Assembly (NCBI GenBank): GCA_963921275.4
Contig: OZ001293.3
Location: 1,312,001-1,376,000 of the forward strand
DNA from: an uncultured Hormoscilla sp.
GTDB lineage: Bacteria > Cyanobacteriota > Cyanobacteriia > Cyanobacteriales > Desertifilaceae
DNA: 64,000 bases
Direction of reading: 5' to 3'
A program made the translations under genes and the position numbers. Positions 52,275-52,493 of the stretch are shown here, in pieces; the first letter of the stretch is position 1; each line of letters begins with the position of its first letter. The notes beneath the pieces were generated by a model that was not told the origin of the DNA, made no database searches, and saw nothing but the letters and a program-made list of their open reading frames with translations.

Positions 52275-52469
52275 TCAAGGGCGATCGCCTCTCATATAAC
52301 TTACCCAAAAAATAAGGGAAGGAACTTCGGTTCCCTTCCCGTTATCGCCTTTGAGTTTTCTGCGCAGTACTTGCTGTTGCTTTTTCAGCTGCCGCATTCG
52401 GGCCGCGCCACCTTTACCCTGGGAGTTTCTCCCCTGCCGGCGGGGAGACTCCCATCGCTTCAATTGCAT
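52275..52469 (-). CDS. Small basic protein with an internal terminator
   Basis: RBS AGGAG; MQLKRWESPRRQGRNSQGKGGAARMRQLKKQQQVLRRKLK; a second diverged copy starts at 50714. Confidence 0.6.
   Translation of the reverse strand: MQLKRWESPRRQGRNSQGKGGAARMRQLKKQQQVLRRKLKGDNGKGTEVPSLIFWVSYMRGDRP
52307..52340 (-). terminator. Intrinsic terminator inside the small ORF
   Basis: GGGAAGGGAAC-CGAA-GTTCCTTCCC followed by TTATTTTTT. Confidence 0.8.
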
Positions 52470-52493
52470 TTTCCCTTTCTCCTAAACAGACAG

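Follow-up and report, generated by a model that had tools for sequence, protein, structure and literature searches.

Two bacterial ribosome-rescue factors, ArfA and BrfA, are the closest described counterparts of a small gene that lies behind a leucine tRNA gene in a 64,000-nucleotide stretch of DNA from the cyanobacterium Hormoscilla sp. (uncultured; GenBank assembly GCA_963921275.4, contig OZ001293.3, positions 1,312,001 to 1,376,000), referred to below at its full length as the window. A hairpin ahead of the stop codon gives ArfA a nonstop mRNA, and the protein is kept at a low level by transfer-messenger RNA (tmRNA), according to the account in PMC8012679. BrfA is described in PMC6881298 as having a reading frame of 71 codons with a terminator inside it and a tmRNA-tagged product of about 62 residues; it accumulates in an smpB mutant and recruits release factor 2 (RF2), and its basic C-terminal part occupies the mRNA channel. 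The conserved KGKGS motif of ArfA binds the empty mRNA channel, and a third factor, ArfT, has a similar KKGGS stretch, as described in PMC6299226.

These factors have narrow ranges. The text of PMC6881298 gives ArfA as confined to beta- and gamma-proteobacteria and BrfA to some Bacillaceae; it lists the release factor-dependent back-up factors as ArfA in some beta- and gamma-proteobacteria, ArfT in Francisella and BrfA in some Bacilli only, and its authors predicted unidentified rescue systems in many bacteria. An earlier sequence-only reading of the window proposed that the small basic open reading frame (ORF) encodes an ArfA- or BrfA-analogous factor in cyanobacteria. The comparison described below shows that this ORF belongs to a large cyanobacterial family in which a terminator-like hairpin lies within the coding frame, ahead of the stop codon.

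A cyanobacterial protein family

The protein encoded by the small ORF is recognised neither by Pfam (at E<=1) nor by NCBIfam. As a query it matches 457 proteins at E<=1, and an Anabaena member used in the same way matches 1070 at E<=0.001. A profile search of 1.84 billion representatives (50% identity) returned 456 proteins at E<=0.001 and 396 at E<=1e-10, and at least 570 loci were confirmed among the 593 pattern matches listed in one-genome-per-species contigs. The taxon names, which include Trichormus variabilis (P0140) and Microcystis (P0100), are all cyanobacterial except for a few metagenome bins; every annotation is that of a hypothetical protein, and a search of the ESM Atlas returned only the family's own unnamed cyanobacterial clusters. 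Two loci (L057, L074) and one protein (P0021) come from bins labelled Alphaproteobacteria, Bacteroidota and Candidatus Gracilibacteria, and because the range is otherwise purely cyanobacterial these are probably mis-binned cyanobacterial contigs.

The locus analyses described here cover the best-scoring 80 of the at least 570 confirmed loci, which are mutually related. The scripted set consists of 79 loci and the window, or 80 cases, and one further Hormoscilla locus (L002), which was missed by the motif expression because it reads WETP, was analysed by hand, for a total of 81 loci. A second WESPR match in locus L054 proved to be a chance motif and not a gene copy.

When 36 members are aligned, residues 1-40 are near-fixed, with the consensus MRLKRWESPRRQGRNDKGKGGSARxRQLKKQQQMLRxKLK and 17 invariant columns, and they are followed by a linker of variable length, a segment resembling G-x-E...F-P-x-F-F, and tails which cannot be aligned. 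The conserved domain is strongly basic, with a median of 16 lysines and arginines against 3 acidic residues. Over codons 2-40 of 80 sequences (76 unique), codon positions 1, 2 and 3 have entropies of 0.48, 0.22 and 1.22 bits, the mean proportion of differing synonymous sites (pS) is 0.787 against 0.113 for nonsynonymous sites (pN), and the median ratio of nonsynonymous to synonymous rates (dN/dS) is 0.055 among the 631 unsaturated of 2850 pairs. The sequence-only reading had said that a lack of coding-type conservation would speak against it; the substitution pattern is of the coding type, so that the conserved stretch is neither just a tRNA trailer nor an element of RNA alone, and to judge from these comparisons the small ORF is almost certainly a real protein-coding gene of a large, unnamed family found throughout the cyanobacteria.

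The terminator ahead of the stop codon

A relaxed caller, which accepts a single hairpin of <= -7 kcal/mol followed by a T-rich tract, finds a hairpin and T tract in all 80 cases, with energies of -11.9 to -26.3 kcal/mol, and the strict scan criteria call a terminator in 60 of them. Calls of at least this strength occur in 24 of 160 control windows taken from the same loci. The hairpin starts 123-208 nucleotides (nt) past the ATG in all 81 loci, the window and L002 included. The distance from the last G or C of the stem to the first in-frame stop is 5 to 173 nt (median 63.5), and the stop never comes earlier (80/80). L002 has the same arrangement, with a terminator-like hairpin ahead of the stop. 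Homologues with a stop before the hairpin, which the sequence-only reading had also named as evidence that would tell against it, therefore number 0 among the 80 scripted cases.

The reading frame itself stays open over this region. Between residue 41 and a point 7 nt past the stem, an interval of 12-42 codons, the ORF frame contains a single stop in 1854 codons (1 of 80 loci with a stop), compared with 26 stops in 1825 codons of the +1 frame (22 of 80 loci) and 166 stops in 1810 codons of the +2 frame (73 of 80 loci). The hairpin occurs in all three phases relative to the ORF (36, 29 and 15 loci), and the number of frames that pass through it without a stop is one of three in 8 loci, two in 51 and all three in 21, the ORF frame being among the stop-free ones in 79 of 80. 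The probability that all 80 would be stop-free under random phase is about 10^-12.8 if the loci are assumed to be independent, and since they are related this figure overstates the significance. Past the terminator, the median run to a stop is 18 codons in the ORF frame and 9 and 11 codons in the other two, as expected from drift, and the tails past residue 40 range from 12 to 130 residues in 361 family proteins and are not conserved. RNAalifold, applied to a MAFFT alignment of 41 hairpin regions, returned 0 pairs, stems of different length being out of register.

The conservation of an architecture with the terminator before the stop is thus well supported at the level of sequence, and it is likely that the transcript is a nonstop one.

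Composition of the hairpin arms

The arms of these hairpins are strongly biased in composition, with medians over the 80 cases of 93% purine in the 5' arm and 94% pyrimidine in the 3' arm. Both values reach at least 0.9 in 45 of the 80 family hairpins and in none of 76 control hairpins, the latter being strong calls of a hairpin with a T tract among 474 control windows of these loci, where the medians are 0.53 and 0.50. TAA, TAG and TGA are impossible in every frame of an arm that lacks T, or that lacks A and G, whatever insertions or deletions the linker has undergone, and the composition fits selection for a stop-free terminator.

The purine-rich 5' arms (L033, L047, L061 and others) are often Shine-Dalgarno-like, as in AAGGAGGAG, and the 3' arms resemble the anti-Shine-Dalgarno sequence.

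The gene in the window

The features of the locus are collected in Table 1. The sequence-only reading described a small ORF with a ribosome-binding site after tRNA-Leu, a product rich in lysine and arginine with a G-K-G-G motif, and a hairpin with a T tract before the stop, and each of these holds. The tRNA-Leu(CAA) gene is the only tRNA gene that ARAGORN finds in the window; the ATG follows its 3' end after 23 nt and is preceded by GGAG at -13..-10. This spacer is too short for a separate promoter or terminator, so that the ORF is probably co-transcribed with the tRNA in this genome, and its mRNA is probably freed by tRNA 3' processing, as the layout of the locus suggests. Inspection by eye finds a perfect TATAAT at 52598..52593, 18 nt ahead of the tRNA 5' end, and TTGCAA at 52619..52614; the pair was not called by the consensus scan because the spacer between them is 15 nt and the scan demands 16-18 nt.

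Residues 1-40 of the product contain 14 lysines and arginines and one acidic residue. The terminator site called by the consensus scan has 9 pairs, of which 5 are G-C, a 7-nt loop and the tail TTATTTTTTG, and the TGA stop lies 30 nt beyond the end of the T tract at 52307, so that the terminated transcript is predicted to lack both the tail and the stop codon. The hairpin folds at -15.4 kcal/mol, with 7 of 200 shuffles equal or better; it is statistically unremarkable when taken alone (z = -1.88), and its significance comes from the comparison with 80 other genomes. A search of positions 50000-53000 against Rfam (E<=1) found nothing beyond the tRNA and one sub-threshold antisense match.

Table 1. 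Positions of the small ORF, its parts and its surroundings in the window
Feature	Position	Strand	Details
M48 (HtpX-like) peptidase gene, 5' neighbour	52554..53444	minus	Pfam Peptidase_M48 E 3.5e-18
Promoter-like elements 5' of tRNA	52593..52619	minus	putative; read directly from sequence
tRNA-Leu(CAA)	52575..52493	minus	ARAGORN; Rfam tRNA 58.5 bits
Spacer between tRNA and ORF (23 nt), the ORF 5' leader	52470..52492	minus	alignable and conserved in Hormoscilla loci L001-L004
Small ORF	52469..52275	minus	64 residues, MQLKRWESPRRQGRNSQGKGGAARMRQLKKQQQVLRRKLKGDNGKGTEVPSLIFWVSYMRGDRP; TGA stop 52277..52275
Codons 1-40, conserved basic domain	52350..52469	minus	LKRWESPRRxGRNxKGxGGxARxRQLKKQ...LK; 17 invariant columns in 36 sequences
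Codons 41-43, short variable linker	52341..52349	minus	alignment of 36 sequences
Codons 44-55, hairpin and T tract inside ORF	52307..52340	minus	hairpin 52340..52316, T tract 52315..52307
Non-conserved tail and TGA stop	52275..52306	minus	tails not alignable; stop position varies among relatives
DUF3800 gene, directly 3' of small ORF	52222..51347	minus	Pfam E 6.8e-21
Variable 1.5-kb insert between copies	50741..52274		DUF3800 gene and two copies of a ~95-nt repeat
Degenerate second copy	50533..50740	minus	ATG 50714, hairpin 50589..50555, no tRNA in front

Resemblance to known rescue factors

The conserved domain carries the near-invariant pattern N-x-K-G-K/R-G-G, and KG[KR]GG is present in 352 of the 361 family proteins. 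An AlphaFold2 model built with the alignment, whose mean predicted local distance difference test (pLDDT) value of 67 denotes low confidence, shows a helix at residues 21-41 (pLDDT about 85) preceded by an extended segment at residues 1-20 (pLDDT 61-69), the rest being ill-defined.

The family resembles ArfA (YhdL of E. coli, Pfam PF03889) in being a small basic protein with a lysine-glycine motif (KG[KR]GG, a look-alike of KGKGS in ArfA), a dispensable tail past the hairpin, and a hairpin ahead of the stop, which in the family is seen at the level of sequence in all 80 cases and in L002; it differs in having no detectable homology to ArfA. The hairpin of E. coli arfA is also an RNase III site. 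BrfA (YqkK) is the closest architectural match, with a rho-independent terminator within the coding region as in the family, although its sequence is unrelated, the family having no PDB or Pfam match. The two N-terminal helices of BrfA bind 23S rRNA; the model of the family suggests instead an extended N-terminus and a single helix.

The remaining factors provide partial parallels. ArfT works with RF1 or RF2. It is set beside the family by description only: PMC6299226 presents it as a very small basic peptide of 40 residues with a KKGGS-type motif, and its account of ArfT, in the part drawn on here, describes no control by a terminator before the stop. The helix predicted at residues 21-41 of the family could act in the manner of the basic C-terminal tails of SmpB and ArfB. 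ArfB, however, carries its own GGQ hydrolase domain, and the family has GGQ in 1 of 361 proteins and no match to the RF-1 domain, while SmpB, unlike the family, is a folded protein that works with tmRNA. A predicted complex of family residues 1-48 with Synechocystis RF2 scored 0.00 against a mark of 0.32 and, having been run without controls, counts neither way.

Proposed mechanism and its alternatives

The explanation favoured here is that the family arose by convergence, that its product is made from a nonstop mRNA and throttled by tmRNA, and that this product most likely serves as an alternative ribosome-rescue factor. The unit would consist of a promoter (either its own or, as in the window, that of tRNA-Leu(CAA)), about 40 conserved codons, a variable linker and an in-frame intrinsic terminator. 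Termination would leave an mRNA without a stop codon, on which ribosomes would run to the 3' end and stall, and tmRNA-SmpB would then tag the product for degradation, so that, by analogy with ArfA and BrfA, the protein would stay at a low level. When trans-translation is saturated or lost, an untagged peptide of about 50-70 residues would build up, its basic helix at residues 21-41 and its N-x-K-G-K/R-G-G loop may bind the empty mRNA channel and the decoding centre of nonstop ribosomes, and its invariant extended N-terminus may recruit a release factor or trigger release in some other way. Both families with a terminator before the stop that have been studied experimentally, ArfA and BrfA, are rescue factors, and for this reason the rescue reading is favoured over other functions. 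Control of the product by tmRNA is probable on the strength of this analogy, rescue activity of the peptide is as yet evenly balanced between yes and no, and the chain from terminator to rescue, taken in full, has about an even chance of being correct. The proposal of an ArfA- or BrfA-analogous factor is therefore supported in part: the nonstop architecture is upheld, there being 0 of 80 cases with a stop before the hairpin, and ribosome rescue, tmRNA tagging and release-factor recruitment are inferred; no homology to ArfA, BrfA or SmpB was found.

A number of observations weigh against this explanation, and those that concern the architecture must be considered together with a rival account, in which the family is an ordinary small basic protein, for example one that binds the ribosome or nucleic acids, with a normal stop, a hairpin that terminates poorly or only past the stop, and a tail that is simply unconstrained. 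The background of the relaxed caller is high, with some call in 77 of the 160 control windows; the locus counts are not independent events, the loci being related; and the purine/pyrimidine hairpin may have been inherited as one trait. In 7 of the 80 loci the stop begins within or directly behind the T tract, at 5-12 nt from the stem, and some transcripts there could carry it; two of the 361 proteins (P0048 and P0113) seem, by a crude proxy, to stop before the part encoded by the T tract. The hairpin of the window is only modestly better than its shuffles (z -1.88). The stops close to the stem, the two early ends and the modest strength of the window hairpin would all suit an ordinary protein, and a closely trailing ribosome could suppress folding of the terminator. 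Ordinary genes, however, put the stop codon ahead of the terminator stem, which is the case in 0 of the 80 family cases; the stop is instead scattered over 5-173 nt past the stem, the frame is open through the hairpin in all three phases, and the arms have a stop-proof composition unlike that of the 76 control hairpins. An ordinary protein with a normal stop is thus improbable.

The second group of adverse observations concerns function. Searches of Pfam and with the family profile against PDB detected no homology to ArfA, BrfA or SmpB: Pfam, run on 36 members at E<=10, gave no ArfA or RF-1 match, and the profile, compared at E<=10 with all PDB chain sequences, which presumably include those of the BrfA ribosome structure, gave four chance-level matches and no rescue factor. 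The likeness to the KGKGS motif of ArfA, to which the sequence-only reading drew attention, is real and short. An hhalign comparison of the family profile with E. coli ArfA gives a probability of 2.6% over 14 columns with 43% identity, in which RQGRNdKGkGGsAR is aligned with RVEKNKKGKGSYMR of the E. coli K-12 protein; the likeness between KGKGG and KGKGS is to be read as a motif resemblance and is no evidence of homology. The position of the motif also differs, being in the C-terminal half of ArfA but N-terminal to the basic helix in the family. In the literature searched, with subscription journals outside its scope, neither the family nor an ArfA-like cyanobacterial factor is described.

A survey of 15,259 genomes (PMC11633108, section 5, Table 1) gives, for its Cyanobacteriota/Melainabacteria group (n=162), smpB in 161 genomes, ssrA in 155, arfB in 90, arfA in 0, rqcH in 161 and mutS2 in 150, and an earlier survey, as described in PMC4235212, found ArfB in 25 of 55 cyanobacterial genomes. 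The figures of 0 for arfA and 90 for arfB speak for the explanation, as they leave a gap that such a factor could fill. On the other side, cyanobacteria already possess RqcH, MutS2 and often ArfB, and a further back-up is not obviously needed.

In a second rival account, nonstop mRNA and tmRNA control are as proposed and the peptide is no rescue factor. It could then be some different response to failing trans-translation: it might silence ribosomes or put them into hibernation, act as a regulator, or arrest growth once tmRNA is disabled, for example by phage. The whole of the architectural evidence fits such functions equally well, and so do the lack of homology to known rescue factors, the presence of the other back-up systems and the occurrence of extra or degenerate copies beside variable inserts (the second copy in the window; L028 and L031). 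Set against this, both studied cases of the architecture are rescue factors, and KGKGG resembles the channel-binding motif of ArfA and ArfT; a role in defence or as a toxin, in particular, accords less well than a housekeeping role with the conserved place beside the M48 and tRNA-Leu genes and with the dN/dS of 0.055. A non-rescue function is accordingly unlikely, though less so than an ordinary protein.

Transcription unit and neighbouring genes

A tRNA-Leu(CAA) gene lies upstream on the same strand in 39 of the 80 loci, at a gap of 21-91 nt in 13 of them and of 252-2309 nt in the rest; 40 loci have no tRNA that was found, some of these having short flanks. The link with tRNA-Leu on which the sequence-only reading laid stress is therefore real but not universal, the two genes being within 91 nt of each other in 13 loci only. 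The 910-nt gap between tRNA and ORF at one Rivularia locus holds no sizeable ORF, and where no tRNA is adjacent, near-consensus TTGACA-17-TAnnAT promoters are seen by eye 25-55 nt before the ATG.

An M48 peptidase gene is found upstream in 31 related loci as well as in the window, where the ORF listed for it overlaps the first 22 nt of the tRNA at its 5' end (52554-52575). In 27 loci the same strand carries a gene for a WecG/TagA-type glycosyltransferase at least about 700 nt downstream, and a convergent MerR regulator gene ends inside the tail of the ORF in 19.

If the small ORF were a leader peptide with an attenuator, or part of a small regulatory RNA acting on a downstream gene or in trans, then its transcript would be expected to be short, with its own promoter and terminator, as it appears to be, and in the window a same-strand gene does start 53 nt past the ORF stop. 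Among the loci examined, no same-strand gene directly downstream is conserved; the 3' neighbours differ from locus to locus and are often convergent, which argues against a leader-peptide attenuator, and the DUF3800 gene that follows in the window is missing from L003 and L004. The substitutions, moreover, are of the protein type, with third positions saturated and 17 residues invariant, and Rfam has no match besides the tRNA. A leader or regulatory RNA is for these reasons very improbable indeed.

The second copy and other features of the window

The diverged copy of the gene, of about 208 nt and roughly 90% identical, spans the region from the last tRNA bases through the hairpin. A 1-nt deletion near 50638, after ATGCG, brings a stop after 27 codons, and the copy also carries the change K19Q. 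The sequence-only reading held that this copy, too, has no stop before its terminator once the deletion is corrected, and that it keeps its hairpin in spite of changes. Both statements are borne out, since the frame past the deletion reads QLKKQQQVLRRKLKGGDKRKGTSVLFPYFFGSLYEGLVAHK up to its stop and is open through the copy's own hairpin, which has the loop TTCG where the main copy has CGAA. TTCG is also the loop of four Hormoscilla relatives (L001-L004), and CGAA, the loop of the main-copy hairpin at 52316-52340, is its reverse complement; from the sequences, the main-copy loop looks like a loop inversion, and with it the hairpin loses stability, from about -20 to -15 kcal/mol.

Of the four Hormoscilla loci, L001 and L002 have the insert between the copies, with its DUF3800 gene, and L003 and L004 lack it, so that the 3' side of the small ORF is a spot of variable insertion. 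The ~95-nt repeat within it has copies with an exact core at 50882-50978 and 51264-51354 (plus strand), a weaker copy lies at 48385-48494, and further copies are present in L001-L004. In the repeat, a perfect TTGACA-17-CATAAT promoter-like site precedes a short hairpin and a T-rich run; a family of small RNA genes and a miniature mobile element are two possible identities for it. A separate case of duplication is seen on contig CAIVAU010000128.1, where L028 and L031 are inverted copies, about 13 kb apart, of tRNA-Leu(CAA) and the small ORF; each has a 36-nt gap between tRNA and ORF, and their ORFs and hairpins are identical.

Two further genes of the window may be mentioned. A short-chain dehydrogenase gene at 49607-50452 (plus strand; adh_short E 4e-48) is broken by an in-frame TAA at 50270-50272, past which the frame goes on for 57 codons, and is probably a pseudogene. 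MNT-HepT is usually a two-gene toxin-antitoxin pair; at 37140-37829 (plus strand), a single ORF of 229 residues joins an NTP_transf_2 nucleotidyltransferase domain and a HepT-like RNase domain.

Significance

What is new here is the stop-proof composition of the terminator arms, the linkage to a tRNA gene and the protein family itself, while the regulatory logic is already known. That the family represents an independent invention of a nonstop-mRNA, tmRNA-throttled rescue factor, and the first such factor in cyanobacteria, is put forward tentatively, its chances falling a little short of even. Under such an interpretation, the family would have three features for which neither ArfA nor BrfA has a described equivalent: the stop-proof arms, the invariant N-terminus and an ancestral link with tRNA-Leu(CAA), the mRNA of some lineages being excised from a tRNA transcript. 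The N-terminal peptide LKRWESPRR.GRN.KG.GG may bring to light a new mode of contact with the decoding centre or with a release factor.

The family provides a concrete and directly testable candidate for a rescue factor in a whole phylum of ecological importance, and further families could be sought by the stop-proof composition that its hairpin arms display. If the proposed role is correct, then the placing of a terminator before the stop codon would be a recurrent evolutionary solution which can be searched for in genomes, and the family would supply a new peptide for structural work on the recognition of nonstop ribosomes.

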